NCBI RefSeq assembly: GCF_013076305.1
Contig: NW_027019640.1
Coordinates: 4,874,378-4,938,377, forward strand
Reading direction: 5' to 3'
Length of the DNA: 64,000 nucleotides
From: Rhopilema esculentum
Taxonomy: Eukaryota
Shown: positions 12,242-61,915 of the stretch, one piece after another
Layout: every line of letters starts with the position of its first letter
Numbering within the stretch: the stretch's first letter is position 1
Made by a program: the position numbers and the translations under genes
Notes under the pieces: model-generated
What the model was told of the DNA's origin: nothing
What the model saw: only the letters and a program-made list of their open reading frames with translations
Database searches by the model: none

Positions 12242-13207
12242 ATGCCAAAACCACGGGAGGTAGACACTAGAACGAGGCGTGACTATGAGGCACTTCCCAG
12301 TTGTCCCACCATTGCAGGACGCTCTTGCATGGTGCAACCTGGGTCTAAAGTAATTCACCTTTCTGGGTTTGACTTCAGCATGGAAGGAAAGAAAGTTGTT
12401 ATGTCTTTGGAGAATAAGCTCTTGTTAACCTCAAGGCTGCAAGGGAGCGGGTTGTTACAGTCAAAATTAGAGCTAGGCCATCATCGACAAAGCTACAAAA
12501 CGGATGTTCCTGGTGTCTACGATAAACCTACTCATCGAGAACTCGGTGGCGACTCGAGAAATAAAACAAGGCCAGCAACAAGCTTGAATAATGATCTTTT
12601 GCGAAGCAGTGTTGCAAAGCAATTGACAAAAAACAAGCTCTTAGGGCAAACCAGTTACAGTCATAAACATGTGTCTGAGAAAAAGAAGCCAGCAAAAGTG
12701 TCTAGTCTAGAGAAAAATGCCGATAAATTGCAGCATTCAAGTGAAACAAGAGTCACTAAAACCTTACTTCAAAACAAAAGGCTTGAAAAGCCTGTCGCAT
12801 CTAAAGGTTTGGCAGAGAAGAGTTTGACAACTAATTTCTTGCTGAGGTCATCAAATTCAATCAAAACAATGGGAATACAAAGACAAACAATCGATACAAA
12901 CAGTAAAAATATAAACTTCCATTTGAAACCTAAAGCTTTATTGGCAACCAAAGAAAAGCATTCATATCAACCTGGTCCAACAGCTCTATTACAGAGCAAA
13001 GGTGATATTAGAGACAAGGATGCTGCTGTTGAACAGATCATATGCATAAAGGAAGTTCCTCTCGTAAAGCCAATATATAAACTTGCATTTGATGATGAAG
13101 ATCCGTCTAGAGAGTTTTTAGGAAGAAATAATGCCAGCAGTTTCAAAAACATAAGTTTCAAAGATCCATCTGCAGAGAAGGAAAGACTGGCTGTTCAGAA
13201 ATGCAAG
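12242..13207 (+). CDS. TEP1: TEP1 exon 1 (ATG start; Lys/Ser/Leu-rich N-terminal region with degenerate LLxS(K/R) repeats)
   Basis: Long ORF 12242-13294 on the track. Donor AAG|gtatgt at 13208 ends in phase 0. Next exon begins the TROVE region. Confidence 0.6.
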
Positions 13208-34200: not shown

Positions 34201-37200
34201 AGCAGCTATACTTCATGTCGTATTACCTGGAGTAAACCACCTTTTTGTTATTACCACTCCACTTCGGATGAACGGTTGATAATGTAAAAAATACCTACTT
34301 TTTATAAACAATGTATTTCGCTGGAACAACTAATCCAACCTTCCTTTCCTCAGTCATTCTTGAAAACAAAGTGTTTTTTCTAATTCCTTGAAATGGTGCT
34401 GGTATTGTTTAAAATGTTTTGTTTGTAAAAAGTGCCCCGCTTTACAGACCCTTATAAAAGCATGAAATTTCTAAAGAACGCCACGGGTCTTTTTGAAGTA
34501 ATACGGTACGTGGTTGTTGAAAATGGCATTTCTTAGAGTTTGATTGAGTGATATAAAATTGTAACATCCTTTTTGTTTACTTCTGCAAATTCTACCTTAG
34601 GCTGCTGGAGGACTTTGGCAGGATCTGGAAGACACATTATGTTCATTGTCGTTTATCTATGCAAAGTTTCAAGCTGGGCTGGGGAACCAGCTTCTTGAGG
34701 ACTTTTTGGCTAATGGTACGTCACTTTCTAACTCATTATGGAATTTTGACCATGAAACTCATACCCTGTTTTATCGACAATTTACAAGCCACATTTCCAA
34801 TTAAAAACAGATTGAAAAAATCTAGTAGCAGCTCTATGTCATAGATTTGATTGTAGAATTCTGTTATTTTATTAGTTGATGATCTGTCACCTCAGCTAAA
34901 CCGACAACGTCAGAGCTTCATTGAAAACCCCAGAGTAAAGGTTTGCTAATTACTGTTTATCATCTATTCTTTAAAAAGGTTCATCCTACAAAGAATTTTT
35001 ATTATTAGCACTGCCAGAAGAAAGACATACATATAAACATGCATTCACAAAATATTTGCTTAAACAGTATTTGCGTTATTGTAAGTTGTTTAGTTACAAT
35101 TTTTGTATTTGATACCAATAACGATGATGTTTGTCTATCTAAACCTTTTTTAGAATTATCAAGCATTTGTTGGTAGGAACATGCATATACTGAACCGGTA
35201 AGTAGACCGTACTTATTTTTTGAATACCTTTGTATCATATATGAATATGAATACGAATATGAATTATTTTTATGGCTGAATTTATAACCGTAAAGCCCAA
35301 AAATATTGTCCTCCAGTTTTAAAGTAAGTTTTGATTCACATTTGTGTGATCTGTTTCCATCTTATCTGTTGAATTTCCAATGCTCCATCTAGCTTTTGAG
35401 TTTAATTATTTTAGGTATCCAGTTCTTGTGGTTCAACAAGCGTTGAACGATTCTGCATCTGAGCAGCTAAACCAGGATGCTGTGCAGTACTCAAAGGAGC
35501 AAAATGTTTTCCAATGGCTGAACAAACCAGCCAAACCAACACCTTTGAAGCGAACAATGAATTTCAACGAGGTATGCACATAAGATCCTATTTTAGTTTC
35601 GTAGCATGGTAAGTAATAGGGATAAGTTTTATTGTGTCTCTCCGTGAGTATCCATGGTCATGGCAAATAAAATCAGTAACGATACATCAACAACAGAATA
35701 CCCAACGATATATCAAGTTTTTCCTTTAGTACACAACCTCAGAATTAACGCGAACCTTACTAAATTCATCCGAAAACTAGACTTTGTTTGCTAAGAGCCC
35801 TGCTTTGTAGTTCAGCCGTTTTTTACGAGTTGTTAGAGCTTCCGTTGGAGCTTTGGCATCTTTGTTAAAATTTGTCACTTTCTTTTAGGCCGTCCTCTCA
35901 ACGGATATATCACCGGATGGCAGCACACTTGTGTGTGGCACAACAGATGGGACAGTTCATATGTTTGACATCGCCACTGGAAATGTATTTTTGCTTATTA
36001 TATACTATTATTTGTGCAATCTTAATATGAACAAATTTAGATATTGTGAACATATATACCTGTGAAAGGTCGGGTCCATTGGTTGAGGCTGTTACTTGCA
36101 GGAAAGAATTTTTGGACCAGATTATTACTTGGAGTCTTATCCTAAAAGGTTGCTTGTTTTGAAGAGATATCTACAATGATTTTTGGCGTTATGTAATGAT
36201 CTGTGGCCAACCTAGCTAGCATTCTTAAACTGAAGTCGGCCAGTTATAATATAGTCTACTCACGTTTTTCTTTCAAGTTTGTGCAAAGTTGTGCTCCTTC
36301 CAGTATGATCAAATACTTTTAAAAGCTCTAGTCAGATACTACATCTGAAGTTGTGAAGGAAAAAACCTCCCATTAAAGCTTGCTTTCTTAACTTTCGAAA
36401 CCACTGCAACACTTGTAACATCTGTTGAACTTCAGCCTGTTCTTGTTGTTGAATTTTTAGGACATTGGAAGATTCATAGGGCACGCAGACAGCATAACGT
36501 CATGCTGCTTCGTTGGACCGAAAAGGCTCGTGAGTGCGTCAATGGATTGCACGTTGTCTGTATGGAATGTATCAGGAGGACACAGGTGAGGTGCTCAAGT
36601 GACGTCACATGCATGGTATTGTTTATGTTTACATCCCAATGCCTAAGGTAAAATGGGTAACGATGCCCAATTTTTATGAGAGACCCGATAAGAGAGCATA
36701 TTTACTGTTCGTTGTGGAGAGGTGTTACTTCAAGTCAGCTCGAAGGTTGCTTCGACAAGAGATATTCTCTAAGGATCTGGTTTTTGGGAGTGCTCTCCCT
36801 CTCTCTCTAATTAACTCATCAGGCCTGCTCATCTTGATTTACTTTCTGCCATCTTTTATTTCATATCCACCCCTAAACACAGAAAAGTTTTTCTCTGTGC
36901 AATATTTAACAGTATGACATTCGAGAGAGTCTAAAACTATTTTATGGTGTCAATATTCTTATTAAATGTTTGTCTTATTGTTTAGAGTTCAGCGCTTGTT
37001 GGGCCACAGACGACCAGTTACGTGCTGTGTACCTGTACCCACAAAACAGCAAATCATCTCTGTTTCATTTGACTGTCAAGCTATAGTCTGGAATATACAG
37101 GACGGAAAAAAGGTCCTGGATTTCAAATCTGGAACGTATGTAGATTTTCTCTTGTATTTTCTTTCGAAGCCATAGAGTCCAGGGCCGTTGCTACTATTGT

Positions 37201-40200
37201 TTATGAAATTCATTTAAGTCCTTCATTTCTAATGAACTATTCCTTGCATTCTTATTCTACTCAAGCAAAGGTGCCCCAATAATTCGGCCCTTATTACGGG
37301 ACTGAAATCTAATACTTTCCTCCGCTGACCCCAAGAATCTCTCCCAAAATACAGTAGCTTTAATTATCTAACATAATGTAAGCTGATTTGTTTTATTTGT
37401 CAAAGCATCTAGAACGAATTCTCGCTGTGATTAAACTTATTCAGTAAGGGTCTCGTCATCTTTTACAGCCGACCGTACAACAGCGTTGCATGTGATCCAG
37501 CGGGTCGTCTTGTCGCTCTCGGTGGCTGGGATTGCGTCATAAAGCTCTGGGATTTGTTGACCAACAAACGACAAGGGGTATGAGAACCTTTGCAGCTTTG
37601 TTGGGTTTGTCAGATATCATATCATATCATATCATATCATATCATATCATATCATATCATATCATATCATATCATATCATATCATATCATATCATATCAT
37701 ATCATAGCATATCATATCATATCATATCATAAATGTGACTTCTATTTCAAAAGAGTATTTTTAATCTTTAATAATAGAGTTTTGCCACTTTGTTCCCTGC
37801 AAGTTCATAGTAAGTTCTAGTAAGTTCACCTGTCCTAGTAAGTTCATATTGAAAGCATTTTACTGACTACAGCAAGGTGTAACCTAGTTCGTATCGTTGT
37901 TTAATTCTACAGCTGTTGAAAGGCCACGAGAGCTCTGTCCGTGCAGTTACGTTTTCTCCATCTGGAAAGCATCTAATTTCATCTGCTCTACTGGGAGAGG
38001 TTTTCCTTTGGGCAGTGACGTCTGGGACAAGGGTATGCAATCTTTTTTTTTTTTAAAGGAGGTGATACACAGTTCTTCTCTGTACTCACCTCAAAATTAC
38101 TTTTAGTGGTTTTAAAGATAATTTATGAAATAGGTATGTTATTAACAGGCATTGTATACTATGATTAATATTCTCGGCAAGAATTTATTAAGGATTAATA
38201 ATTGTTAACAAAATCTTACTGAAACTGAAATAGTTTACTCATAGATTAGACCAGTCAGATATAATTAAGAGCCAGTCCCATTGCAAACCTTGGCTCAGTA
38301 ATCGAAATTTTACACGTTTTTGAAATAACACTCCTCCTGCGCGTCGGTGCGCATTACAAATTTCCATTCAACATATATGTTGATGCTGAAACGGTTAACT
38401 ATGATTTGGTGTTATTGATTAATGAATTTACATATTTTTGGAACGTCAAAAACGAGCATCCAATCAAATATATCCGGCTTGCTCTCGCGCTACTTTCAAT
38501 CCGCATCAGGATATAAATTTTTGCTCCCTTTAAGTTGTTATCCGATGTTTATACTCTGAAGAGTGGAAGACGAAATGTACTCAAGTATGTCGTGTTTCTG
38601 TTCCTCCATGCTGTCTTCGTGGCACCAATGGTTTATTTGCATAAACTGATCCGTTTTGAAGAAGTGAACGACTAATGTCTATTGAGGACGGTATCTCTTA
38701 ACTGCAGAAGGTATATAAGTTTCTATAGGTTTTACCATAAAATATAGAATGAGAATCGGATTACAGCTCCGCGAAGGAAGGCAGCCCAGGCCTATTGAAA
38801 ACTTTTTAATACATTGGTCGGTTTAACTACATATTCGGTTGACTTTTGCTTGTATCAAATAAATCTATATTGATTTACATTCAATTTGGTTTCAAGTAGA
38901 CACATAATGTATTGATATTTTCATATTTAATGGCTCTTCTTTGATTGACGTTAGGTAGGGAAATTCTCCATCGGCTCATTGGCAATCAATAGCATTTGCT
39001 ATACTGCAACTGGTTTACAGATGATTGGAGCTTGCGCGGACAGCTCAGTCAAGGTTTGTGTTAAAGAGCAGTTTTTTGCCTGGGCAATTTCTGTAAGTAT
39101 GTTTTTCGATCAAAAACTAGCTTTGCATAGGTTTCATCCAACATAGTTAGGCTGGTACCAAATAGTAGTTGTATATGTAGTTGGACTACGCTGGCGATAG
39201 GTTATGATTGCAGTAGCTCCTTACGCAATGGTGGAACACGCTCATGCCCAGCCCAGCCTATACGGCGTGGGGTAGCATTCGATATACCGGTTAACTGTAA
39301 TCGTCATTATATTAATTGCTCATTAAAGGACTGATTATTCTATTTAAATAGAAGTTTGATGAATGGAATATAATTCCCTTTTAGGTATGGTCTGGTTCAT
39401 TAGGTCAACCATGTGGCACATATAGCGAAGCAGCTGGTGCCGAAGATGACTGGGCTTTGGCTGTTGTCATTGATGCCATTGGCATGTACATCCACGTTGG
39501 TTACAATTCTGGTAAACTCGCATCATTTCGATACAGCGATGGAAGCGTACTGAGGGAATACAATCTCCACAAGTCGTCGATTCGAAGTCTGTGTGTGTCT
39601 CAAAATAGTGAATACCTCGTTTCTGCATCTGATGATCGTACAGCGAAAGTGAGTAGCATTGCCTGCATATGTTTGGAGAATGTGATTTTCTGATTCATTT
39701 CAATCAACCGAAAATAACAGCATTTTTTAGTAGCTACTTACATTTACTTGTAAGAGTCTTTGATAATAGTAGTACTAGTTTATCAGCAGTTTGCGAATGA
39801 ACGTGTACATGACAAACAAGTGAATAGATCAATTAAGATAAGATGGATATGTTACGAGGATTACGAAAGATATTTGCAAACCTAACACAAGATTGCTAAT
39901 GTTATCAATTCTAGCTAAATCATGAGCTTGGCATCAAGTAGAATGAAAATTCGCCACTACAGTACAGCTACTCTAAAGTCTTAGGGGAGGAATGGGAAGG
40001 GATTTTTATCTGCAAACAAACTATCGATGTGTGACCTTAACATTTCAGTACAGACTGTTTATACTGACATAGCTTCACGTGCAAGAACAGCTTGAAATCA
40101 CCATCACGCTTGCATACACAACTCTATTGTAATCTTCTTAAAGACTCTTTTTTTTCTTTCTCCTGGGATTAAATAAATTCAGTAAAAATCAAAATTAGTT

Positions 40201-43200
40201 GCGCATAAAGCAGAAGCAGAATGGGTAAAGTAAAAAAAGAATCTTCAGTTAACATCCGAATCAGGATTTGAATTTTTAACACTCCGAGTTAGAATAAGAA
40301 TCGTTAATGTCCGAGTTAGGACTTAATCTTCCCACAGGTTATACCTAATCATATTTCCATTAAGGCGATACTCTTTACAAAAACCGGTCTCATATTTTGT
40401 TTCTGACTGGTTTCAAAAGTTCAGTTTCTCTCAATTGTAAATATGGAATGTGTGACTTATTCTAATAAACACAAAAGTTGATTCAGTGTATTTAAATCGG
40501 GTTTATTTTTATATCACCAGATTGTGAAACTCAAGGATTCCAGTATAACCACCTTGGAAGGCCACACGGAAGGAGTCCGTTGCGTGAGAATGACTGCTTC
40601 TCAGGTTGCCACAGGCTCAGAAGATTACACCATAATGCTCTGGGACATCCTATTTTTGGAAGAGAACTCAAAGTGTGTAGCTGCTTTTAAAGACTATTTT
40701 TAGATCCATGTGTTTTGTAAAAGTGCATTTCAAATTCAGGTCAAAAATTTCAAATACATAAAAGCCCTGATCGTGGTTATATTTTTTGTTATTGCAGTCC
40801 CAAACCGTCAGCAACCCTGCGTCATCATACTGGCTACGTCACGTGTTGTGACTTCTCACCTTGTGAAACGAAATTGGTTTCAGGCTCAACTGATAAGGTA
40901 TTTTTTTTTATTTCAGCAGGCTTCTAAAGACATTTTAAGTACATTGGTATTTACAAAAATAGAATAACTTTTTCCATGCAAAGTTTTGCTGGTGTTACTT
41001 TCTAAAAATGCTTCTTTGGATGGGCTGTGTCCTCTAGTTAATTTGATGTCTCAACCACAGAATGTTTCAAGACTTATTCTGTTCTTTTTCTCATTACCAA
41101 AATTTTCAATAATCCTGAACTCTTCGAAAACTCTTGGAAGAGAAAGCGGTACATGTTTCGAGAAAACCATGCTCTACCTTCTTAGACATCTCTTCGAGAG
41201 GGTCAGCTCTTGAGAATGTAGGGAAAACTTGCAAAGTGGGTTTGGAAGGCAATTAGAGCACTCATTTGCAAACTATGGAATAGCCTTTCAGCTGAATCTA
41301 GGACGACATCCTCCTCTAGTTTTAATATCTGTTTGGGTTTCAGCTTTTAGTTCTATTGTAATTAATGTATAATTGTGGATAGGTTTCTTTATTATGTTCT
41401 TTTAAATCCAAGTTTTTTCATTTTAAACAGTAATTGAGTTTTTATTGGAGGCTAACCCTCCTTAAAAAACTGAAATATGAAGCAACATATATCAAATACG
41501 TAAAGCTATTTTGAAAGCCATTGATGGAGAAATTAGAGTCTCAGGGAACCCTGTGATAAGAGTTTATATGCCTTGTTATTGTGAGCGTAGAAACCTTTTG
41601 CTATTCAAAGTTTGTATTCTTTGATTTCCTGGCGGTTACGTCAATTTTTCCCCAGTCTATTGTCATATGGGATGTTGTGAACAAAGCACCACTTCATGTG
41701 CTGAACGAGTGTCATCGCGATTGGGTAAATGCATGTGCTTGGTCAGATGTTGGAGATTTCGTGGTAAGATTGTTTCTAATGACTCTTCCTCTACAACTTA
41801 GATTGCCTACCTTATTAGCTATCTTCCTTTTCCTCGTAATCCAAGTTTAAGGTTTTCCATTTGTTTGAATGCCCAATCGTGTTCTCACGTATAGTATCTA
41901 GTATCAACTAAACTTGCTAGGGTGGCGGATGAAGTTTAACCCCAAGGTTAGGAATCTTTAGCCATCTGTATCATCTCATTCAAAGGCTCTAGCGTTTCTT
42001 CTACGGGTTGAGAGTCCTTGCTCTGAGATTCAAATGTTGCAGCTGGCACAAGTGCTGCTGGAATATATAGGCCAGCAAGTACTAGAGATACTTGGCAACA
42101 GCCTGTTGTATTAGAGACATCATGCTGTTACTAAGGACATGTGACTTTCGTTCAACCTCGGATTGTATATGGAACTCCTTTGCTTCTTGATGTACGTTAA
42201 ATTAATAACTCGCAATTGAATCTTGAAAGGCTGAAATACTTGTCCAAGTTAGGCCTTTTCTTTGTTTATAAGTCTTGAGATTTGAAGCAAGATTTCCCTT
42301 TGAATGAGCTTCAAGTAAGCTTAGAACATCAGTCCAATGTGATGGGGGACAGATTTTTAGTAATGCTAAATCATATATGCTAAATCATCTATTTGATGTT
42401 TTCTCAATAAATGTTCTTTGATATATATCATACCAGCTTGAATCAGTTATTCTCATGCTATTTGCAGGTAACAGGCTCAAATGACTTTACTTTGAAATTA
42501 TGGGATGCCAAAACAGGAACACAAAAATATGAGTTTCTTGGGAACACAAGTGCTGTCAATGATGTTGCATATAAGGTATTTAAATTCTTTTGTTTTGCCC
42601 TTTCCTCGCGTAAATATATTGTTTTTGTTTCTGTACCATCTTCTTCTTCCTCTTTTGCGTACTTTTCTAAGCCTTTTTTGTCCGCTCTTTCTTGCTTGTA
42701 TTGTTTCCATCGTTTTTTGTTCTTTGGCCCCTCTTTTTGTGGCCTCTTTCATTTAATCTTTTTCTCATTTTCCCCGTCGTATTGACTTGTTTACATTTTC
42801 ACATTCGCCATAGCCTATTCTTATATCTTTCCCGCTTGCAATCCATCCACTTTTTGCTTTTCTATTTCATTTGTATCTCCATGTTTTCCTCATCCTTTTC
42901 TTACTCCCTTTCGTCTTTTTTTCTAAAAGTCAATATTTTTCACTCTCCGATCCAAAATACCTCATGGCTGCTATTCCTCTCAAAATTCCTTCTAACGCCC
43001 AACAAGAATTTTCGGTTGATCTTAAAAAATCTCCACATATTGGGAGGGGGGGGCCCTTAAAAAATTACGGACCCTCTCCTTCTCAACCAACAGATTTTTA
43101 TAGTTCAGCTCAATATCATAAAACAAGGAAACTTCCTATACTTTAACATCCTTTGTAGTAATCCAGCATTGTTAAAAGGAGTAAAGTAGGATGATTGAAT

Positions 43201-46200
43201 GCGTCCTTATAAGTTGACAAAAGTGCCCCAAGACTTTTGGCAGTGAGCGTATTTCATCCCGTCTTTCTCTCTTTTTTCCTTAAAGCGCCCGTGCTTTATG
43301 TCTAGCTTTGTTAGTGTCTGCATCAACGAAGAATCATGAAATCTGTCCATTTTCAATTATCGTCATTTTGAAGTGACGGAAATCTCTTGACAAGCTAAAA
43401 ATTCCTCCAATCCCTTATGCTGCTTATCTAAGGTCCTTAGTAGAAGGGGATCTTGATAGTTGGGGGGGGGGGGGTCAGAAATTTTTTCAAAAAATAAATA
43501 AGCGGGGGGGGGTCCTAGTAAGTGGGGGGGTTAGAAATGAGAAAAACCTGAAAAATCACATGATGATTCTTTTTTGGGGTTAAAGGAGATTTTCTTCTGA
43601 AGACAATCGATAGCAAAATGACAATTATCACCATGTAATAACGTATTTTTGTATTACTAAAATGAGCAGGCTAATTATCATTGTGTACATCAGTCAGGCC
43701 TATGTAAATCTTTTTAGGATGTCACTACTTTTCTATGTTAAAACTTTTGTACAATGCAACCTCTTCATTTAAGAGAAACTTTACAGAAATTTCACACCTG
43801 CAAGATCAAAGGACAAATGAAATAAGGGATATGAATGACTGCATATAAAAATTAATAAACGGAGGTCCAAAAATAAGCTCCGGGGGGGGGGGGGGGGGTT
43901 TCAGAAAAAAATCAAAAAATTAATAAGCGTCCCCCCCTTCTATTAAGGACCTTAGAGTACTTTTGTCAGTTGCTTCAACATGTTTTTCATTGAGTATCTC
44001 AATTCTATGAACTGTAATTCCTACAGTTTGGTTGCGTGGTATCTACGTCTTTTGACGGCTCTTTGAAAGTTTGGACTCATAAGGGAGTGGAGATCACCAC
44101 GCTACAAGCACATAGCGAACGGGCAAATGGGCTTTGCCTGTGGAAACAAGGGGTATGCAACAGTTTTTTCTGAATAGTGATTCATAATATTGTTTTCTTA
44201 ACAATGACAGTAAATATCAAAACTATAGAAATCCATCGTAGAAACCTGAGCTGTTTCACATGCAGTATAGCTATGACTTCGTGTTGCAGTTGTTCAAAGT
44301 CATCACTCAAAGAATCAGATTCGATTTCTTATCTGTATCGAAATGAAATAGAATTTTATACCCGGAAAATTTGTATGTACAAAGAAGCTATATTTGTAAA
44401 ATTTATCATAGCAAGAGTATTTTCTGAAAAAATATCTACGATCAACCCGCTAAAATCTTGTTATCATTGTTTTGCATTTAAAGTGTAGTGAAAGTTTTAA
44501 ATCATATTTGATCTTTATGTAAACAGTCGAGGGTGAATTATACATTTGCTGCACCGGCACATTTTGATTTTCAGTTGATAATGATTTACGTTTGAGGTTT
44601 GAAAGATAGGCATCTAATGATACGTGGTACATTTTTGGAGTTGTCTCACTTTTTATCGTCCTGTTCAAGCTTTTTGTAGTTGATTGCTTAAACTGTGGCT
44701 CGCTCTGTTTCAGGATGAAAGTATTGACCACTGGGAGCTTGATGACACCAGTGAAATGTCGACAAACCAGCTGATCAAAAACAAGCAGCCAAAATTGGAA
44801 CAGGTAGAAATCGTGACGACAAGTGACGATGGGACTGCAAAGAAATGGAAGCCGTTCGTGGTAAGTGATTCAAAAGAACGTTTACCCTTGTTGTTTAGTT
44901 TATTGATCTGTACCTGGGAGGTCCAGCTTTAGAGACCTGACTGTGGGCTGTTTTCATCTACAAGCATTGTTTAAAAACGCCTGTGAAAGACCATTTCGGA
45001 GCTACATCATCAAGATAAGACAAAGCAAATTTTAAGGAATAATTTGAAACAAAACAGTAGCTGCAATAAATATCACAAACCTCTTTTTGCCAAAATATTC
45101 TTTAAGAGAAGGGGCCTCTTTGGCAGCAAAAAAACTGTATCATCAGATTACGCCATGTTTGTTCGTAGACTTTCATCTTGTCTCGATTTCGTTACAGCCT
45201 CATTTCATTGAGAATCTGAATGGTCATACAGATGTAGTATCCAGTGTTGTTGTTAGCCCCAATGGGAATGATGTGTTCAGCGGTAGCTATGACAAGTCAA
45301 TCAATTGCTGGGACCAGTCGATGGTAATTTTTTGTTAACGTTCAAAAAAGCCAATACACATTCTTCCATAGCTTGTTTTGATACTGATTTGAACAATTTA
45401 GATTTAACCTGCAAGAACATGCTTGTTCTTTGATCACAGATGGAAGTACCCAAATTCAAGATGAAATTTTGTTTGTCAACGAAGCTCGTATCTCAATTTG
45501 TTTTGTTAAAAAAAAGAAATCGCAGAAAGTTTTATGCAACTGAAATACTCTGATGTAACCATCCAACGTTTTGTAAATAGATGTAGTAAGCTGCCAAAAC
45601 AGCTGTTTATTGTAACTTGTGGCTGTTTCTACAGACAACGCTCAAGTTTCATTTTCAGTCTGCAACACAGAAAACATGGCATAAAACAGAAATCAATTGC
45701 AATATTTTCCTAGGGCCTTCAACTATGTGCTTGAAATGTCTGTTGTCTCAAACTAGTAGATCTGGACAAGTTCCTGCAAGTCTCCTTTTGAATAATCATT
45801 TCTCTAGATGCTTCCATGAATTTTTTTTTGCCCTAAAAACCATTAAGATTTTTGTAAAGTATTGTTGATATCTTATCGTAATAACGCTCAAACCTGAATT
45901 AATCTATGGTCAGATTCACTGAGTTTTATAAATGCTGCGTTTGGATGTATTGTTTATTATAATTTCATTTTCTTATGATCTAAGAAGTGTAGTTTTTTTT
46001 AAATGTCATAATTTTTCCATAGTTCGAAGCTAGAGATCGTACTCACTCAACTGAAGTCAAATGCATTAGAATATCCGAAAGTGGAAAGTATGCTGCATCA
46101 TGTGGAAGGTAAATCGTTCATATGCATTTAAAATAAAGAAACTGCTTTTGTGCTTAGTTGTATTTTTCATCAGGATTGTAAACGCAAAACTTTTAAAAAT

Positions 46201-49200
46201 GGTATTGTATGGTATGGTATGGTATGGTATGGTATGGTATGGTATGGTATGGTATGGTATGGTATGGTATGATATGGTATGGTATGGTATGGTATGGTAT
46301 GGTATGGTATGGTATGGTATGGTATGGTATGGTATGGTATGGTATGATGGTATGGTATGGTATGATATGATATGGTATGGTATGGTATGGTATGGTATGG
46401 TATGGTATGGTATGGTATGGTATGGTATGGTATGGTATGGTATGGTATGGTATGGTATGGTACGGTATGGTATGATATGGTATGGTATGATGGTATGGTA
46501 TGGTATGATGGTATGGTATGGTATGGTATGGTATGGTATGATGGTATGGTATTGTATGGTATGGTATGGTATTGTATGGTATGGTATGGTATGATATGGT
46601 ATGGTATGGTATTGTATGGTATGGTATGGTATGGTATGGTATGGTATGGTATGGTATGGTATGGTATGGTATGGATTGGTATGGTATGGTATGGTATGGT
46701 ATGGTGTGGTATAGTATGGTATAGTATCGTGTGGTATGGTATGTTATTTTATGGTATGGTATGGTATGTTATTTTATGGTATGATATGGTATTGAATGTA
46801 TTCTACCATGTGTGGTATATTGATGTATCGTTATTCAATCTGATTCTTTGAGTGATGACTTTGAACAACTTCAACCGAACGTAAGAAGCCGCAGGTCTTT
46901 TGAAGTAATTTAAAATTTCCTCATCCAACAGGGATGGCTTTGTCGGTGTTTGGAGCCTCTCTCCCCACAGTCAGCTGTCAACTTTTCAGGCATGTATCTG
47001 TTTGTTTCTGATCGCTGATAAATTTTTTGATCATTGAATCTTACAGTTTTGACTACTATCTCCCTATATATATCTGTTTATTCCTCTGGACATAGTGCTG
47101 AACGACAAGCACCTTACCACTTTCTTGTTTGTCATGAATTCTGCTATTTGTCATAGGCGAGTACAAAGAGTGTTAATGCTGCGTGTTTCATTAGCGATGA
47201 GCGATTTGTCACAGGGGATGACCTTGCTTGCCTCTGTTTTTGGACCCTGAGTGGCCAGTTGGTCGACACGTATGTATTATGAATTCTTAACAAATTAGTA
47301 CTGATTTTCCAATTAATTGATTTACCTATATACCTAGAATGGTACTGCAGGCTTTGCAGCTGATGTCCCTTATGTGTGCTTTTAACCATTTTGCCAGGAA
47401 TGTTTTCTATATATCCACGCAATTATCTATTTCATTGGTCCAAAAAAGTACTGTCTAATCCTGAACTTACATTAAGCCGCTTTTTACCATCTTTGGCAGT
47501 TGCAATGACTATTTTAAGATTAATGGAATAAAGGAATAGATTTGCGAATATTTCTTCAAGAGAATTTCTATCTAGTGGATTCTCATACAACAATTTTGGT
47601 CATGTGCTAGTAATTGAATTGCTGCCTTTTTATTATTTCGTGTAAAAAATTTTAAACACTACAATTAAAGCCTTTCGGTAGAATAGTTGAAAAACTTCGT
47701 TTTAAAGACATATTTCAGTGGCGAATGTTTAAAGTAATTGAAAGTTTAATAAAGAGATTTTCTGTCCTTAGGATGGACATTTCATCTGATGGCCACTCGT
47801 ACCCAATCACTTGTATCAATCGCCAGGGGAATTTACTTGCCATTGCTGCTTACAGCCTTTTTGTAGTTTGTTGGATGGATGACGATGATGCCAGGAAATG
47901 GGCGCGTACTTCTATAATGACAGACAATTTGTGAGTTTATCATTCTATGAACTGATTCATTTTGAAAAAATTGATCATTCGCAAGCAAAAAATTAACTCG
48001 ACCCAGCAGAAATAACTAAGTTTCTTTTTTTCTGCATGTCGGCGTATTTTAAAAAACCATATTTAACTTATTCAATTTAAAAAGAACTTTTCTTGTAGTT
48101 TACAGCGTTGGCCTTTCTTGAAATGTAAACGTTCAAATTCAGCTTTTATGTCCGGCCTAAAAATTTTTCAAGACTCATCTAACATTACGTCATTACAGAG
48201 TTCGTGTTTAGAATTTTTTACTTTTGGGCGCGTTACCTGAAAACACACCATGATTGTTCGGGAGATGAATCATGCTCGTCTTCCAGACCTGCACTAGCCC
48301 CCGTTTTAGAGTCATTGCACATGCTCATTATCATTTGAAGCCCTGACGGGAAGTTCAAGAGGTGTGTGGTCATAGACAGAACAGCTGTGCAAATACGGTT
48401 ATCCATGCGCATGTGCTATGACCCTGCAACACTGATTGGTTTAAGACAGTATTGTTTCGAAACAAAGGCCTGAGGGTTTCGTCTCCAGAAAAAAATGAAT
48501 AAAAACTATGACGTCGTCATTTTAATATGCAAAATCAATCAAGTTTGAGTTCAAAACGTTTAGAACCTAGACCAAGTTGTAAATTGAGAATTGGATTTGT
48601 ATTGTTCATTTCGCCATATCTCAACAAATTTGTAACAAATTTAGCTGATATTTCCCACTTAGGTTATGTGGTCCAAAATAAAAAACTCTAAGAAAACGTT
48701 GATGTAACTCTTCCATTGTAAAGAATTGTCGATACATTGTCAGGCCACGTGTTCTTGTTTTTTGACTCTAATAGTGACCCCGTTTTCTTGCCCCAGTTTT
48801 TGCTTTGACGGCTTGTGTTTGTTAAACCTTTCATTCTTCCATACCTTTTTTGTCTTTATCATAAGCTTTGCTTTTAATGGTCCTCTGTTGCCTTTACCTA
48901 TGCATCAGTTCTCTGAATTTTTCTTTAGCATTATTAATCTTCCTTTCTGAATCAGGGGCGGACACTTGGTCAAATATTGGGGAAAGCAAGACGTCACATT
49001 TCCCCATTATTTTAGAACAAACGCCCATTGTCTTCCAAAATATTGGGGGGTGTGATCACCCCCTCACCCCCCAAGTGTCTGTCACTGTTACGAATCTTTC
49101 TTTTCCAGTACCTTTCGACACTAATCAAGATATTTTGCCGCAGAGTTATTTATCTAGTATATTTTTCTGAAAGATTTCTTGAAATATCTCAGGATACTTT

Positions 49201-52044
49201 TCCCAATACGAAAATCTTTCCAAAGAAACTCTGTATCTGTGTAGATTCTGACTCTTTTAGAACTATTTCTTAAAAAATGGATTTTCCCATCTTATCTTGA
49301 ACAACTTTAAGTGGTAATTTGCTAAAATTCTAGTTTTCTAATCTCCACATTGTTTTCTTTGAAGCATTTCCAATGCGCTGAATGAGCCTTGGATAATGGA
49401 TTTAGAAGTTATGAAAGGTGGAAAGACAGTTTTGGCAGCCATCACAGATGACCATATCTGCAGTCTAAACATTTTCGAAAAGGTTTGTTAATTATTTAAA
49501 GCTATAATAATTGTCATCTGTCAATTAATTACCTATTTTTTTGTTTTCTTATCACCTGTGTTGACTATCTTTTCTTTCAGCTACAATCCCGGACAAAATT
49601 GGAGACAAAATGCAATTTTCGCAGTTTTCCAATTTACGTTGCTCTTGTATATTCGAAATCTCCTTTTCAGCCCGAATCAATGTTGTTTTTCTCTTTCTTC
49701 GTTGTTTTCTATAATTCTAATATTCTAATAATATGTAGAGAAACGTGATTGCTTCATAAGCTGTTGCTATATTTCTGGTAAATCATATATTTTGCATGAT
49801 ATTTCTAACGATTTATCATAACATCGTTTTGTATCAATCACATTTAAATTTGTTGGCTGTTGGATTGCGTTAATTGAAAGGCTTTGATTTAATCCGATAG
49901 CATGGACTGGGGTTTTTTTCCTCTAAGACAGGACACTCCATTTGATTTAATCCATAACTTCTTTAAATGATGATGAGCCTTCGTCTTAGTGGGACAGATT
50001 ACAATTCATTAGAACCCCTATTCACAAATAAAATTTCTTATTTTCCAGAAAAGAAAAGATTCGGCTTGGAAATCTCTCATAGAGGTAGCCTAATTCTCTT
50101 AAAGATGCTTTTATGTATTTTAAACTACACAAAACGCTAAAGATTTTATTTATATTGTTTCGCCTATTCTGGACTTTTTCCATTAAATGCAGTATTTCTA
50201 ATGGTAAAAACTGCTGGCTAGGAGAGTAAGGTCGATTGCCGTTGCTCAGATTTGCAGACGGTTTCAAAACTAAAACTTTTAATTCTATCCTTGCTCACTT
50301 TCTAATGTTTTGCTAACTTTAACGTTAGACTGTATTCAAAAGCAAATTTTCTAGGAAAGAAGCATTATCAGTGTAAAGTGGAATTGGGTATATTTGAACT
50401 TCAAAGAGGAAATGTATTTTGTGGCAGCCAATGTAACTCTAACTCATTTGTAACTAAGGATGATTATGAATAAAGGGGAGAATGAGACTAGCCAAAAAAC
50501 ATCAAAATTCGTTTGCACTTGCAGATAGCATCGACACTTATTATTTTAAGAACTATCATAGTTGCTTTCAACCCAAATAGCCCAAACAACATAGTATCTT
50601 TAGCTATCTATTCAAAGCTCTTTCATAATTACGTCATTTTGCTTCAGGTCTCGCTAGATTCAATCAACAGAGCAGAATCATCCATTCGCTATTCACCTGA
50701 AGGTGAACGTCTAGACCTGGAGAAAGATGACAAGATAACCATCTACGCAGCTAGACTGTTTGATTGTTCTGGCAAAGGATGCAAATTATTTGCAACTTCA
50801 GAAGGATGTATAGGATTTGTCATTAATCCCGATCTAGAGGAGCCAGTTCTAAAGGTATGGTTCTAAAGGAGCCAGGAGCCAAATCTTTTGCTCACCCATG
50901 TGACCTTTTTATAAATTTAAAACTATACACAGTTATGGCTACAATCAATGCGAATTTGGATGTTAGTGTATTTTCTTCATTCAGTACTTTCTTTAGATTT
51001 GTATGTCATTTTTTTCTAGGTTAGTAGTTTTATTCCTTTGAAGATTGCAAGGAAGATCGTTTAGAGAAAGTTAGGTTTTTGTCTATTGACATGTAAAGGA
51101 GAACATTATTTTTGGACTCAGGGCAAAAAATGTTCCCAAAAGCATGCAAAGCAACATAATTATTTTTTGTCATAAACCACTTGCCTATGAGAACTTAATA
51201 GTCCCAATCCATTAGACTGTCGGATGAAAATTCATAATTTCTTTCGCTTATTGGTTCATAACTGTTACTCTTAACTAGGCGTTCAATTTTTTCTGAGATG
51301 TCGATATAAAGAGGAAAATTGCGATTGACATTCCTGAAAATGATTAGGACTTCCTTTTCTAGGTACATGAGAGTGCAGTCACGGGTATAGCAATTGTTGA
51401 CAAATTGTTAATAACTGCATCTTCGGATACCACTATCAAGATATGGGATTTGACTGCTTTGCACGAAATCATAGCCGCAAGTAGTGACGTCACAAGCCCG
51501 GCATTCAATCAAAGACTGGTGGAGTTTGTAGAGGCGGGCGGAGTAAAACAGGTACGTTTGACGAAATGTATCCGACCGGAGCCTGTGCTGTGACTATATG
51601 AAAAGCTGATTTATTAAGAAAAGCTCACAGTAAACGAGGTCTACGTTTGATAAATTGACGCGAATTCATGACTTTTTGCAAATCATTCGAAAGTCACCTG
51701 TTAATGTGACTTCAGCGACCATTTTGCAAACACGACCTTATGCTCAGTAGCCAAGCTTTGCGCATGCTCAGAAATAGGAGCATGACCAGAGCAAATCGAT
51801 CGGAAAGCCACCGTTACGCTGATTTTTATTCGCTAAATCGTGTGTATTACAATAAAAAAATAATGCCTATTCACTGCCAAGTAATATACTGCAAACTTTG
51901 ATTTTCGATTTTATTTTTCAGATTGGCTTGTTTTTCTGTCGAGGGCCCATCACGACTCTAGATGCAAAATCAGTTAACGGAGATTGCATCATATTTGCTG
52001 GAGACAAGACTGGGAATGTAGAAATGCTGAAATTTTTAAGATAA
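12242..52044 (+). CDS. TEP1: TEP1 ortholog gene span (telomerase-associated protein 1 / vault protein component), about 55 coding exons; architecture: N-terminal region, TROVE, DUF4062, NACHT, WD40 repeats
   Basis: Exon peptides align collinearly with human TEP1. Examples: [123 protein letters not shown], many WD blades, and a C-terminal GNVEMLKFL versus human GNVYFLNWE. GT-AG introns throughout. Confidence 0.85.
13761..13895 (+). CDS. TEP1: TEP1 exon 2 (TROVE N-terminus: [18 protein letters not shown])
   Basis: Acceptor tttcag|ACT, donor AAG|gtaagt. Human TEP1 has LEPEFILK at the same position. Confidence 0.75.
14792..14953 (+). CDS. TEP1: TEP1 exon 3 (TROVE: [27 protein letters not shown])
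   Basis: Acceptor ttgcag|ATT, donor CAA|gtatga. Near-identical to the human motif LPSDWIQVAELYQ. Confidence 0.8.
15359..15505 (+). CDS. TEP1: TEP1 exon 4 ([36 protein letters not shown]..)
   Basis: Matches human FAQFDEYQLAKYN. Splice sites tttgtag|ACA and AAG|gtacat. Confidence 0.75.
15893..16134 (+). CDS. TEP1: TEP1 exon 5 (acidic Ser-rich cluster [35 protein letters not shown] followed by [26 protein letters not shown])
   Basis: Human has FTLKKLVQRLHI..ALLGYRYP at this position. Donor AA|gtatgt ends in phase 2. Confidence 0.75.
16698..16755 (+). CDS. TEP1: TEP1 exon 6 (K)[19 protein letters not shown]
   Basis: Acceptor ttattag|G completes the AAG codon. Donor GAG|gtactg. Confidence 0.65.
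16884..16983 (+). CDS. TEP1: TEP1 exon 7 ([33 protein letters not shown])
   Basis: Human: KRMKLSRPETWERELSLRGNKASVWEELI. Donor G|gtatca ends in phase 1. Confidence 0.8.
17482..17591 (+). CDS. TEP1: TEP1 exon 8 ([37 protein letters not shown])
   Basis: Human: [32 protein letters not shown]. Confidence 0.8.
17943..18051 (+). CDS. TEP1: TEP1 exon 9 ([36 protein letters not shown])
   Basis: Human: SVIHSRQFPFRFLNAHDAIDALE. Donor ATG|gtaatt ends in phase 1. Confidence 0.8.
18353..18470 (+). CDS. TEP1: TEP1 exon 10 with an RG/RGG repeat insertion ([39 protein letters not shown])
   Basis: In-frame (CGN GGN) repeat. Acceptor cgttcag|GT and donor AG|gtatta keep the frame into exon 11. Confidence 0.65.
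19118..19298 (+). CDS. TEP1: TEP1 exon 11 ([61 protein letters not shown])
   Basis: Human: KYDGEMLNRYRQALETAVNLSVKHSLPLLPGRTVLVYLTD. Confidence 0.75.
19861..20016 (+). CDS. TEP1: TEP1 exon 12 ([52 protein letters not shown])
   Basis: Human: LNYALLLIGMMITRAEQVDVVLCGG..ILKTAIKLQAQVQ. Confidence 0.7.
20943..21014 (+). CDS. TEP1: TEP1 exon 13 ([24 protein letters not shown])
   Basis: Clean acceptor tttcgaag|CTT and donor AAG|gtacga. An additional small exon between exons 12 and 14 cannot be excluded. Confidence 0.55.
21673..21842 (+). CDS. TEP1: TEP1 exon 14 ([56 protein letters not shown])
   Basis: ORF-track frame 21664-21846. Donor AG|gtaggc ends in phase 2. Human: VDRVILLGQSMDDGMINVAKQLYWQ. 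Confidence 0.65.
22816..22872 (+). CDS. TEP1: TEP1 exon 15 ([19 protein letters not shown])
   Basis: Acceptor tttgcag|G. Donor AG|gtaaca keeps the phase into exon 16. Confidence 0.5.
24016..24097 (+). CDS. TEP1: TEP1 exon 16 ([28 protein letters not shown])
   Basis: Acceptor ttcttag|G, donor AAG|gtaaca. Phase consistent. Confidence 0.55.
24400..24653 (+). CDS. TEP1: TEP1 exon 17 (DUF4062 part 1: ..[50 protein letters not shown])
   Basis: Human: [45 protein letters not shown]. Donor AA|gtaatg. Confidence 0.85.
24753..24997. mobile_element. Foldback/MITE-like element: about 75-bp near-perfect terminal inverted repeats flanking about 95 bp of internal sequence
   Basis: Left arm catgtaaaggccgatttccatttgacattttttgtgcgcgtgggcgtagcgcctgaatctgagcatgcgtagtt. 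Right arm aactacgcatgctcagatttgggcgctacgcccgcgcgcacaaaaaatgtcaaatggaaatcggcctttacat. The arms are reverse complements with about 4 mismatches. Located in the TEP1 intron between the DUF4062 exons. Confidence 0.6.
25507..25749 (+). CDS. TEP1: TEP1 exon 18 (DUF4062 part 2: [48 protein letters not shown])
   Basis: Human: [47 protein letters not shown]. Confidence 0.85.
26837..26947 (+). CDS. TEP1: TEP1 exon 19 ([37 protein letters not shown])
   Basis: Acceptor caatctag|A, donor AA|gtattt. Phase consistent with the flanking exons. Confidence 0.55.
27501..27621 (+). CDS. TEP1: TEP1 exon 20 ([41 protein letters not shown])
   Basis: Human: [37 protein letters not shown]. Confidence 0.8.
27967..28149 (+). 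CDS. TEP1: TEP1 exon 21 (NACHT Walker A: ..[41 protein letters not shown])
   Basis: P-loop [10 protein letters not shown]. Human: LSLVTGQSGQGKTAFL. Acceptor ttttgaag|ACC, donor ATG|gtaagt. Confidence 0.85.
28690..28850 (+). CDS. TEP1: TEP1 exon 22 (NACHT: [53 protein letters not shown])
   Basis: Acceptor gtttcag|GCA, donor AA|gtaaaa. Phase continues into the Walker B exon. Confidence 0.7.
29726..29876 (+). CDS. TEP1: TEP1 exon 23 (NACHT Walker B: [51 protein letters not shown])
   Basis: Human: QTQVLIIDGADRLVDQNGQLISDWIPKKLPR. Confidence 0.8.
30671..30853 (+). CDS. TEP1: TEP1 exon 24 ([42 protein letters not shown])
   Basis: Human: CVHLVLSVSSDAGLGETLEQ..ARLVREELALYGKRLEESPFNNQ. Confidence 0.85.
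31248..31340 (+). CDS. TEP1: TEP1 exon 25 ([31 protein letters not shown])
   Basis: Human: MRLLLVKRESGRPLYLRLVTDHLRLFTLYEQ. Confidence 0.8.
31859..31991 (+). CDS. TEP1: TEP1 exon 26 ([44 protein letters not shown])
   Basis: Human: VSERLRTLPATVPLLLQHILSTLEKEHGPDVL. Donor A|gtattt ends in phase 1. Confidence 0.75.
32508..32697 (+). CDS. TEP1: TEP1 exon 27 ([48 protein letters not shown])
   Basis: Human: LTVDQLHGVLSVW..GPFACLVQSLRSLLGEGPLER. The exact donor (AG|gttgat) is uncertain. Confidence 0.5.
33003..33103 (+). CDS. TEP1: TEP1 exon 28 ([34 protein letters not shown])
   Basis: Acceptor ttctgacag|T, donor G|gtatga. Phase links exons 27 and 29. Loose match to human ARLCLPDGPLRTAAKRCYGKR. 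Confidence 0.5.
33854..33933 (+). CDS. TEP1: TEP1 exon 29 ([27 protein letters not shown])
   Basis: Acceptor ttctag|CT, donor ATG|gtaggc. Phase consistent. Confidence 0.55.
34601..34715 (+). CDS. TEP1: TEP1 exon 30 ([38 protein letters not shown])
   Basis: Human: LTNLHVVAAHLELGLVSRLLEAHAL. Donor G|gtacgt ends in phase 1. Confidence 0.65.
34876..34940 (+). CDS. TEP1: TEP1 exon 31 ([22 protein letters not shown])
   Basis: Human: FRTFLRQQASILSQYPRLL. Splice sites ttattag|TT and AAG|gtttgc. Confidence 0.6.
35154..35197 (+). CDS. TEP1: TEP1 exon 32 ([14 protein letters not shown], small phase-bridging exon)
   Basis: Required to bring exon 31 into frame with exon 33. Acceptor ttttag|AAT, donor CG|gtaagt. 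Confidence 0.55.
35415..35571 (+). CDS. TEP1: TEP1 exon 33 ([53 protein letters not shown])
   Basis: Human: HLQHTLRWLNKPRTMKNQ, just before the WD region. Confidence 0.75.
35889..35984 (+). CDS. TEP1: TEP1 exon 34 (WD: [32 protein letters not shown])
   Basis: Human: AVAFSTNGQRAAVGTANGTVYLLDLRT. Confidence 0.8.
36461..36585 (+). CDS. TEP1: TEP1 exon 35 (WD: [41 protein letters not shown])
   Basis: WD40 GH..WD motifs. Splice sites tttttag|GAC and AG|gtgagg. Confidence 0.75.
36986..37135 (+). CDS. TEP1: TEP1 exon 36 (WD: [50 protein letters not shown])
   Basis: ORF 36966-37175. Donor AC|gtatgt. Confidence 0.75.
37469..37577 (+). CDS. TEP1: TEP1 exon 37 (WD: [37 protein letters not shown])
   Basis: Human: CLGGCLKLWDTVRGQ. 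Confidence 0.75.
37606..37730. repeat. (ATCAT)n microsatellite of about 25 copies in a TEP1 intron
   Basis: Direct reading: atcatatcatatcat.. with one G variant. Confidence 0.95.
37913..38032 (+). CDS. TEP1: TEP1 exon 38 (WD: [40 protein letters not shown])
   Basis: WD40 pattern. Splice sites ttctacag|CTG and AGG|gtatgc. Confidence 0.75.
38955..39053 (+). CDS. TEP1: TEP1 exon 39 ([33 protein letters not shown])
   Basis: Splice sites gttag|GTA and AAG|gtttgt, in phase. Confidence 0.65.
39385..39648 (+). CDS. TEP1: TEP1 exon 40 ([27 protein letters not shown])
   Basis: Human has the identical VWSGSLGRPRG motif. Donor AAA|gtgagt. Confidence 0.8.
40521..40672 (+). CDS. TEP1: TEP1 exon 41 (WD: [50 protein letters not shown])
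   Basis: Human: LLASASEDFTVQLWPRQLLTRPHKAED. Confidence 0.7.
40798..40897 (+). CDS. TEP1: TEP1 exon 42 (WD: [34 protein letters not shown])
   Basis: Human: CGTELRGHEGPVSCCSFSTDGGSLATGGRDRS. Confidence 0.75.
41656..41763 (+). CDS. TEP1: TEP1 exon 43 (WD: [36 protein letters not shown])
   Basis: Human: LLCWDVRTPKTPVLIHSFPACHRDWVTGCAWTKDNLL. Confidence 0.85.
42468..42575 (+). CDS. TEP1: TEP1 exon 44 (WD: [36 protein letters not shown])
   Basis: Human: SCSSDGSVGLWDPESGQRLGQFLGHQSAVSAVA. Confidence 0.85.
43428..43955. mobile_element. Putative MITE-like element with about 22-bp terminal inverted repeats (ctaaggtccttaRtagaagggg) and internal poly-G tracts, in a TEP1 intron
   Basis: The left end ctaaggtccttagtagaagggga and the right end ccccttctattaaggaccttag are reverse complements. 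Internally there is a duplicated segment tcagaaaWWttttcaaaaaaTaaataagcg followed by G12-18 runs. A related fragment aaggaccttcaagggagggggggggg occurs at about 18925-18960. Confidence 0.45.
44027..44152 (+). CDS. TEP1: TEP1 exon 45 (WD: [42 protein letters not shown])
   Basis: Human: HVVSVSRDGTLKVWDHQGVELTSIPAHSGPI. Confidence 0.85.
44714..44860 (+). CDS. TEP1: TEP1 exon 46 ([49 protein letters not shown])
   Basis: Human: ELLVVTVGLDGATRLWHPLLV. Confidence 0.75.
45198..45323 (+). CDS. TEP1: TEP1 exon 47 (WD: [42 protein letters not shown])
   Basis: Human: CQTHTLLGHSGPVRAAAVSETSGLMLTASEDGSVRLWQ. Confidence 0.8.
46023..46108 (+). CDS. TEP1: TEP1 exon 48 ([28 protein letters not shown])
   Basis: Acceptor tttccatag|TTC, donor AG|gtaaat. 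Followed by an intron carrying the (GGTAT)n repeat. Confidence 0.6.
46201..46795. repeat. (GGTAT)n microsatellite of about 600 bp in a TEP1 intron, with occasional GATAT/GGTATT/GATGGTAT variants
   Basis: Direct reading. It is the source of the spurious [10 protein letters not shown] ORFs in the six-frame track. Confidence 0.95.
46932..46989 (+). CDS. TEP1: TEP1 exon 49 ([20 protein letters not shown]), apparent GC donor
   Basis: Frame continuity with the next exon ([11 protein letters not shown]..) requires the exon to end at TTTCAG, followed by gcatgt. Human: EDGSVRLWQVPKEADDTCIP. Confidence 0.5.
47157..47269 (+). CDS. TEP1: TEP1 exon 50 ([37 protein letters not shown])
   Basis: Human: SSAAVTAVAWAPDGSMAVSGNQAGELILW. 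Donor AC|gtatgt. Confidence 0.6.
47772..47930 (+). CDS. TEP1: TEP1 exon 51 ([53 protein letters not shown])
   Basis: Human: LTSLDWAPDGHFLILAKADLKLLCMKPGDAPSEIWSSYTENPM. Donor TT|gtgagt. Confidence 0.8.
49365..49482 (+). CDS. TEP1: TEP1 exon 52 ([40 protein letters not shown])
   Basis: Splice sites tttgaag|C and AAG|gtttgt, in phase. Confidence 0.6.
50648..50854 (+). CDS. TEP1: TEP1 exon 53 ([69 protein letters not shown])
   Basis: Human: SSFLCASSDGILWNLAKCSPEGEW. ORF 50513-50866. Confidence 0.7.
51363..51551 (+). CDS. TEP1: TEP1 exon 54 (WD: [45 protein letters not shown])
   Basis: Human: IHSGSVTALHVLPELLVTASKDRDVKLWERPSMQLL. Confidence 0.85.
51922..52044 (+). CDS. TEP1: TEP1 terminal exon ([40 protein letters not shown], stop TAA)
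   Basis: Human C-terminus: LGLFRCEGSVSCLEPWLGANSTLQLAVGDVQGNVYFLNWE. Stop codon at 52042-52044. Confidence 0.85.
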   Translation: MGLFFCRGPITTLDAKSVNGDCIIFAGDKTGNVEMLKFLR

Positions 52045-59953: not shown

Positions 59954-60347
59954 ATGAAATACAAAAGAAAAAGGAGCAGCTAGAATCATTCATAAATGAA
60001 ACAAGTTTTCTTGATGGATTGAATCTGACACTAGGTCAAGAAGAAACGGATACACAGTTCAATGAAACTGAACAGACGGAGGAAGCAACTAAAGAAAAAG
60101 CACGGTGGAACTGTAATTTGATGTCCCTGTTTTCTTCTCAGGAGGAACAAAAAGTTGTTTTAGTAAAGAATGACACACAGCTATCAGATGTCATTGCAAA
60201 GTCAAATGAAAGTCAAAGTTGCTTTTTGTTGTATTTTTATGTTGGTTGGTGTGAGTTTTGTGCAGATTTTGCTGCAGAGATAAATACTGTTGGAAGAGTT
60301 TACTTTGGTTTACCTGTATTGGCAGTTGAATCATATTATTTGTCAAG
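59954..60347 (+). CDS. Thioredoxin-like protein exon 2 (..NDTQLSDVIAKSNESQSCFLLYFYVGWCEFCADFAAEINTVGRVYFGLPVLAVESYYLS)
   Basis: Thioredoxin-fold active-site-like W-C-x-x-C (WCEFC). Acceptor ttctgttag|AT joins exon 1 in frame. Continues the track ORF 60019-60399. Confidence 0.65.
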
Positions 60348-61787: not shown

Positions 61788-61915
61788 TATTGCTGGCAAG
61801 TTTGGAGTAACTGGTGTTCCAACATTAATTCTTTTCTACAATGGTCGTCCAGTTGCTAAGTTCAACAGAACAAGATCGTTACAAGGATTAGAAGATTTCA
61901 TCAGCCATACAACTG
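61788..61915 (+). CDS. Thioredoxin-like protein exon 3 (SIAGKFGVTGVPTLILFYNGRPVAKFNRTRSLQGLEDFISHTT)
   Basis: Typical Trx-fold segment (cis-Pro region V-P-T-L..F..G). Acceptor tttctcag|T, in frame with exon 2. Confidence 0.65.

Follow-up and report, generated by a model that had tools for sequence, protein, structure and literature searches.

The 64-kb window, i.e. the whole stretch of DNA that was analysed here, is made of AT-rich eukaryotic DNA with an overall GC content of ~ 0.35, and carries on its + strand a long, intron-rich gene. In our curated splice-aware model, the coding span of this gene extends from 12242 to 52044 and is distributed over 56 exons separated by 55 introns, and the first-pass annotation, which had announced about 55 exons over 40 kb, was accurate in this respect. 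The locus is very probably a single, functional TEP1 gene (telomerase protein component 1, minor vault protein) of the scyphozoan Rhopilema esculentum. The source had been described as an invertebrate, which is right, and is more precisely a cnidarian. The gene is a further member of the known TEP1 family, and its recognition a correct, ordinary identification.

Several other features surround this gene. Just downstream, on the minus strand, an intronless cubilin-like gene (53162-54865) encodes a membrane protein of 558 aa, in which three CUB stretches accompany an LDL-receptor class A domain; read from MLLRALL, its product matches XP_065063102.1 ('cubilin-like [Rhopilema esculentum]') exactly, which identifies the source species. 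Also downstream of TEP1, exon fragments on the + strand at 59908-60396 and 61762-61923 display a thioredoxin domain (Pfam, 40 bits) with a WCEFC motif, and a tandem array at 62690-63478 repeats a 50-bp unit in 15.8 copies (95% match), with a related stretch of 117-bp period reaching up to 63576. Upstream of TEP1, coding-looking fragments on the + strand (7184-7357 and 10664-10924), with a Lys-rich tail, match the TLC/TRAM_LAG1_CLN8 models weakly and below cut-off (17 bits), and may represent the 3′ end of a TRAM-like gene. No vault RNA or other known RNA gene was detected when the entire 64-kb window was scanned with Rfam and for tRNAs.

Exon structure and conservation in a related jellyfish

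The exon model was built with a self-written gene finder based on dynamic programming, in which the codon usage of 37 clear coding fragments was combined with generic weights for donors and acceptors and with exact tracking of the phase. Full-length relatives were retrieved with a draft model, their tblastn alignments (120 homologues) were scored per codon with BLOSUM62, and the remaining junctions were curated by hand against the two closest proteins, P0121 and P0122. Two simpler procedures were rejected: gene finding from codon usage and splice scores only missed small exons and several clear coding fragments, and a flat bonus at homologue-aligned positions let exons run into introns (66 exons, 3353 aa). 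None of the 2883 homologue HSPs obtained by tblastn lay on the minus strand, and none fell outside positions 13701-52041.

The curated coding sequence totals 8169 nt without a single internal stop, with compatible exon phases and a TAA stop codon at 52042-52044, and encodes a protein of 2722 aa when read from the ATG at 12242 or of 2693 aa when read from the ATG at 12329. Introns are 125-1451 nt long (median 540) and poorer in GC than the exons (0.344 vs 0.429). Splice sites are of the GT-AG type in 54 of the 55 introns and of the GC-AG type in the remaining one, with a consensus of AAG/GTA… at donors and T-rich…CAG/G at acceptors (the slash marking the exon boundary).

An independent view of these exons was provided by another jellyfish. 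A search of 1.84 billion representative proteins with the N-terminal exon 1 brought up one relative only: an ORF of a related jellyfish, 89% identical, which sits on a 239.8-kb contig (ctg3552, ENA ERZ25067906) alongside an orthologue of the cubilin-like gene. Two loci of this contig (L001 and L002) cover TEP1 exons 1-14 and 45-56, which were compared with our model, while exons 15-44 rest on protein homology and splice logic. Beyond the cubilin-like gene, the same contig also carries a 431-aa ORF of the MULE-transposase/ZSWIM type (L002:1425-2720).

Several short exons of the model were placed individually on the + strand. Two of them (34876-34940 and 35154-35197) come from frame inspection against P0121 and P0122. 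Exon 49 (46932-46989), which bears the sole GC donor of the gene (CAG/gcatgt), was likewise added by frame inspection, the finder being limited to GT donors, and micro-exon 53 (50049-50084; 36 nt, 12 residues) was the top candidate of the gap solver. These last two calls, the doubtful ones of the model, are supported by their conservation in the related genome: exon 49 is 96.6% identical there and is followed by a GT donor at the same position, and micro-exon 53 is identical at 36 of 36 nucleotides, with its AG and GT intact, between flanks that are 83% identical.

More generally, all 26 comparable exons are present in the related genome with intact AG and GT dinucleotides, and are more similar (92.7% identity) than the 40 nt of intron that flank them (87.6%), most of the long HSPs to the contig, mainly intron and intergenic DNA, being about 80-86% identical. 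Over 1070 codons of exons 2-14 and 45-56, dN/dS is 0.25 (dN 0.037, dS 0.149). Differences between the two genomes are distributed 53:33:99 over the three codon positions, and the indels of the covered exons are multiples of three, exon 1 excepted. This first exon also appears more relaxed, with a dN/dS of 0.59.

These observations bear directly on the possibility of a pseudogene, a TEP1 copy in decay or without function in which exons are still recognisable. In favour of such a decay, a Rhopilema TEP1 protein was not found in a collection of 15 billion proteins, neither by homology over three length ranges nor by exact look-up of two model variants, although the RefSeq protein of the cubilin-like neighbour is present in it; a three-piece chimeric query designed for fragmentary Rhopilema annotations likewise gave nothing above 60% identity. 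Against it, no stop interrupts the 8169 nt of the 56 exons, usable splice sites border each of the 55 introns, the residues for catalysis and nucleotide binding have been preserved, and indels in the compared exons other than exon 1 keep the frame. The excess of third-position differences, the dN/dS of 0.25 and the kept splice sites together indicate that the TEP1 gene is functional and exclude a pseudogene, a reading to which we attach a very low probability.

The introns contain some sequences of their own. Two pentanucleotide microsatellites were identified, (ATGGT) repeated 120 times at 46199-46792 in intron 48, which yields long spurious 'MVWYG' ORFs, and (ATATC) repeated 24 times at 37614-37731 in intron 37. 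On the minus strand of intron 14 (21790-22497), a 235-aa ORF is embedded in 255 consecutive open codons, a length unusual at a GC content of 35%; it had no Pfam match, and may be a transposon remnant or a product of chance.

Domain architecture and relationship to TEP1

The spliced protein was searched with Pfam models using HMMER, and the domains reported here scored above the Pfam cut-offs. From the N- to the C-terminus, the protein displays a variable N-terminal region, a TROVE domain followed by the vWA-like DUF5920, DUF4062, NACHT, an APAF1-type helical domain and ~ 21 WD40 blades. TROVE, DUF4062, NACHT and WD40, which had been proposed from the raw sequence, were thus all recovered on the spliced translation, and the motifs quoted for them were all found on the + strand, at the places given.

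The TROVE domain (PF05731) occupies positions 13190-19217 on the + strand (aa 317-749, exons 1-11) and matches the profile over 15-442 of its 442 positions, with 362.7 bits against a cut-off of 23. It is followed on the same strand by DUF5920 (PF19334; 19296-24085, aa 776-951, exons 11-16), which passes marginally (32.4 bits vs 27). DUF4062, a TIR-like ('NIR') NADase domain (PF13271; + strand, 24478-27615, aa 982-1196, exons 17-20), reached 63 bits vs 24.7, and its 19-residue signature motif is encoded by exon 17 (24400-24653). The NACHT NTPase (PF05729; + strand, 28102-30811, aa 1244-1410, exons 21-24) scored 36.9 bits vs 26.7, and the same region also matches NPHP3_N (38.6 bits). Its Walker A motif (10 residues, including GKSGCGKT) is located at ~ 28117-28143 in exon 21 (27967-28149), and its Walker B motif (11 residues) in exon 23 (29726-29876), with FIDGIDL at 29799-29819, both on the + strand. 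Next on this strand comes a helical domain of the APAF1_C type (PF17908; 33088-35496, aa 1592-1725, exons 28-33; 30.9 bits vs 22.8), to which the two small exons at 34876-34940 and 35154-35197 contribute.

The C-terminal part of the coding span, also on the + strand, forms a WD40 propeller region (35557-52041, aa 1746-2722, exons 33-56), in which the WD40 model reached 276 bits vs 27 over 10 stretches and the TEP1-specific propeller models passed as well (Beta-prop_TEP1_2nd, 253 bits vs 89; Beta-prop_TEP1_C, 102.7 vs 32). A self-trained repeat HMM identified 15 significant blades, and the spacing over 977 aa, with degenerate stretches between the blades, implies ~ 21 in all. The earlier count of more than 15 blades therefore holds if degenerate blades are included and fails on the significant ones taken alone.

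Inside the TROVE region, the + strand of exon 10 (18353-18470) encodes a 22-residue RG-rich, RGG-box-like insert (18385-18450), obtained with the gap solver and P0121 as target. Among 102 homologues compared, an equivalent was found in 11, including P0121, several molluscs and Branchiostoma lanceolatum, and it was absent from the vertebrate and echinoderm TEP1 proteins. The published model of P0122 also lacks it, possibly through misprediction there.

Homology searches placed the protein within the TEP1 family. It aligned end-to-end with P0121 (jellyfish-like, JGI; 55.9% identity over 2704 columns) and with P0122 (Sanderia malayensis, EukProt; 50.5% identity). Among the best 120 matches, every named one was a 'telomerase protein component 1(-like)' or a TROVE-domain protein and none was NWD1, the family against which the TEP1 assignment had to be weighed. 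The full-length TEP1 matches come from molluscs, echinoderms, amphioxus, sponges, a placozoan, vertebrates and another jellyfish. Lungfish TEP1 (P0240) aligned to aa 364-2720 with 31.8% identity (1179 bits, 2468 columns) and produced 23 ordered tblastn HSPs over 14774-51470, and the N-terminal half of a primate TEP1 (P0256) was collinear with the locus. The collinearity with TEP1 that had been put forward as a check is thus borne out with both vertebrate proteins.

The order of the domains, from TROVE through to the C-terminal propellers, is the same in vertebrate TEP1, with collinearity to the lungfish protein over ~ 2350 aa; the catalytic Glu of the human protein is conserved in the jellyfish one, and Walker A and B are conserved as well. 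By contrast, vertebrate TEP1 is devoid of the RG-rich TROVE insert. As judged from sequence, the jellyfish protein presents every TEP1 feature except a match to the vertebrate TEP1_N repeat model. The value formerly seen in a fully resolved non-vertebrate TEP1 proved small, full-length invertebrate TEP1 proteins being already numerous: what is added here is a curated, comparatively validated cnidarian exon model, which matters little beyond good annotation.

Another alternative is that two adjacent genes were wrongly fused in the model, a TROVE/Ro-like gene followed by an NWD-like DUF4062-NACHT-WD40 gene. The junction between them (exons 12-16, DUF5920) is indeed the least conserved part of the protein, and its Pfam score is close to the cut-off. 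Nevertheless, more than 100 full-length animal proteins carry TROVE, DUF4062, NACHT and WD40 in one chain, P0121 and P0122 align without a break across the junction, exon phases are continuous over it, and the related genome preserves exons 12-14 together with their splice sites. P0121 is probably transcript-derived, its ~ 8 kb contigs seeming too short for introns. Such a fusion is even less credible than a pseudogene. Ro60 (TROVE2), for comparison, is a protein of ~ 540 aa in which TROVE precedes a vWA-like part binding small transcripts of RNA polymerase III, and which lacks DUF4062, NACHT and WD40, whereas the jellyfish TROVE makes up the N-terminal fifth of 2700 aa; Ro60-type TROVE chains of the PDB (9l5y, 9kop) matched it weakly (E = 3.6e-5 over ~ 90 residues).

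The DUF4062-NACHT core is shared more widely. NWD1, NWD2 and NPHP3 combine it with a helical part, after which NWD1 and NWD2 have WD40 repeats (10.64898/2026.05.01.722283), and purified human NWD1, NWD2 and NPHP3 displayed no NADase activity (10.64898/2026.05.01.722283, 10.64898/2026.09.04.749371). These proteins are devoid of TROVE, unlike the jellyfish protein, which has TROVE and the TEP1-specific propellers, and no NWD-named match was returned by homology searches with the DUF4062-NACHT segment, the full-length model or the three-piece chimeric query. Bacterial DUF4062/NIR defence proteins (Avs with NIR effector, Swarozyc, Vulcan, Vesta, Evangelion) contain the same TIR-like NADase, catalytic Glu included, and often join it to a STAND NTPase and repeats. 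Their genes are intronless, located in defence islands or on plasmids and without TROVE, whereas jellyfish TEP1 is intron-rich and belongs to a vault-linked family.

That the locus encodes a different, NWD1/NWD2-like NACHT-WD40 protein or a horizontally acquired bacterial DUF4062-NACHT defence gene is the least probable reading of all: the DUF4062-NACHT segment does have numerous matches in bacteria (Planctomycetota, Verrucomicrobia), which cover 99% of its length with ~ 30% identity and reach E-values down to ~ 1e-36 for named ones, and HTH_NWD1 matches weakly (18 bits, below the cut-off of 27), but TROVE lies in the same reading frame, TEP1-specific propeller models pass, all named full-length matches are TEP1, PADLOC defence models give weak P-loop matches only (Avs1b, 19 bits), and the gene has a host-like composition and animal neighbours. 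With its 55 spliceosomal introns and its fusion to TROVE, the gene cannot be a bacterial defence gene of recent transfer, in agreement with the first-pass annotation, which had already set the locus apart as a eukaryotic TEP1.

Start codon and N-terminal region

Exon 1 (12242-13207, + strand) encodes a fast-evolving N-terminal region in which four candidate starts were considered, at 12242, 12329, 12380 and 12401. The ATG at 12242, formerly given as the beginning of the gene, is that of the longest ORF. It is doubted as a start because 10 nt inserted at 12264 in the related genome break its frame; by our reading of the alignment, this ATG opens there a short upstream ORF of ~ 16 codons only. 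The ATG at 12380 best fits the N-termini of P0121 and P0122, yet reads ACG in the related genome. By contrast, the ATG at 12329 (MVQPGSK…) is in frame and present in both jellyfish genomes. On this comparison, 12242 is probably not the true start, and 12329 is the best-supported one; the start coordinate proposed at first was thus that of the longest ORF.

The N-terminal 322 aa had no Pfam match, and the vertebrate TEP1_N repeat model (PF05386) did not match the TEP1 protein at E-values up to 1. This region nevertheless shares a short core with the vertebrate repeats, and shares that core only. Three SLENxxL-type motifs are encoded on the + strand of exon 1, SLENKLL (12404-12424), SLNNDLL (12581-12601) and SLTTNFL (12821-12841), at aa 55, 114 and 194, and none was found elsewhere in the protein. 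The SLENxxL core also stands at residues 9-10 of P0121 and P0122, which have the N-terminal SLENKLL motif in common with Rhopilema TEP1, and occurs four times in the primate TEP1_N repeats, once per repeat. From this distribution, the vertebrate TEP1_N repeat may derive from an ancient short motif. It is conceivable, though unlikely, that SLENxxL is an old short linear motif whose partner is also conserved.

NADase domain and possible mode of action

DUF4062 had been treated as a domain of unknown function in the first-pass annotation. This view is superseded by two preprints of 2026, in which it is shown to be TIR-like and, in human TEP1, to work as an NADase that depends on E1008 (bioRxiv 10.64898/2026.05.01.722283; independently 10.64898/2026.09.04.749371). 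The activity climbs with protein concentration and persists within reconstituted vaults (10.64898/2026.05.01.722283; independently 10.64898/2026.09.04.749371), and the conservation of the DUF4062 Glu throughout eukaryotes has already been reported (10.64898/2026.09.04.749371). Furthermore, TEP1 binds vault RNA via TROVE and is needed to keep vault RNA stable, not for telomere maintenance (summarised in PMC12547018, PMC3762200).

The DUF4062 region of the jellyfish protein matched the PDB chain 11gz_A ('Telomerase protein component 1') with E = 5.4e-59, and residues were mapped by equating residue i of this chain with human residue 893 + i, which puts R908 in STFRD, in line with the published account. 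The catalytic Glu (human E1008) corresponds to E1094, in a TELEMN motif at 25658-25675. Two of the three active-site Arg are conserved, human R908 as R994 and R976 as R1062. The third, the BB-loop R954, which enters and plugs the active site in the human TEP1 crystal structure, is an Asn here (N1040), encoded by a codon split over the junction of exons 17 and 18 (24652-24653 and 25507). Among 121 TEP1 proteins, the Walker A Lys is conserved in all 121, the catalytic Glu, the R976 position and the Walker B Asp each in 120, and a Lys or an Arg occupies the BB-loop position in 102. P0121 and P0122, which have a Ser at the BB-loop position, share a non-basic residue with Rhopilema TEP1 at this place. 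Given the replacement of R954 by Asn, the regulation of the NADase may differ from that of the human enzyme. The NADase Glu and the NACHT nucleotide-binding residues have thus been kept in a lineage that split off before bilaterians arose, which provides a useful backdrop to the NADase activity now established for TEP1 in the vault.

By analogy with the other members of the family, jellyfish TEP1 would act as an NADase and bind vault RNA. Following mammalian and trypanosome TEP1, the TROVE module would bind small RNA polymerase III transcripts (vault RNA, telomerase RNA) and carry them into the vault particle. More speculatively, and after the authors of the 2026 preprints, the WD40 propellers could sense some signal and actuate a STAND/NLR-type, APAF-1-like switch formed by NACHT and WD40, which would lead to oligomerisation and turn the NADase on. 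Extended to the jellyfish, this suggests an NLR-type protein that would be sensor and executor at once, in which a TROVE-bound RNA or a signal read by WD40 would trigger NACHT oligomerisation and then NAD+ depletion, the loss of the BB-loop Arg meaning less auto-inhibition. We regard this complete scheme as unlikely, though less so than any of the rival identities of the locus considered above. If the sensor reading were true, the RGG-box-like insert would reinforce RNA binding by TROVE. The RG-rich insert, the missing BB-loop Arg and the SLENxxL motif are accordingly offered as leads on TEP1 regulation and not as discoveries.
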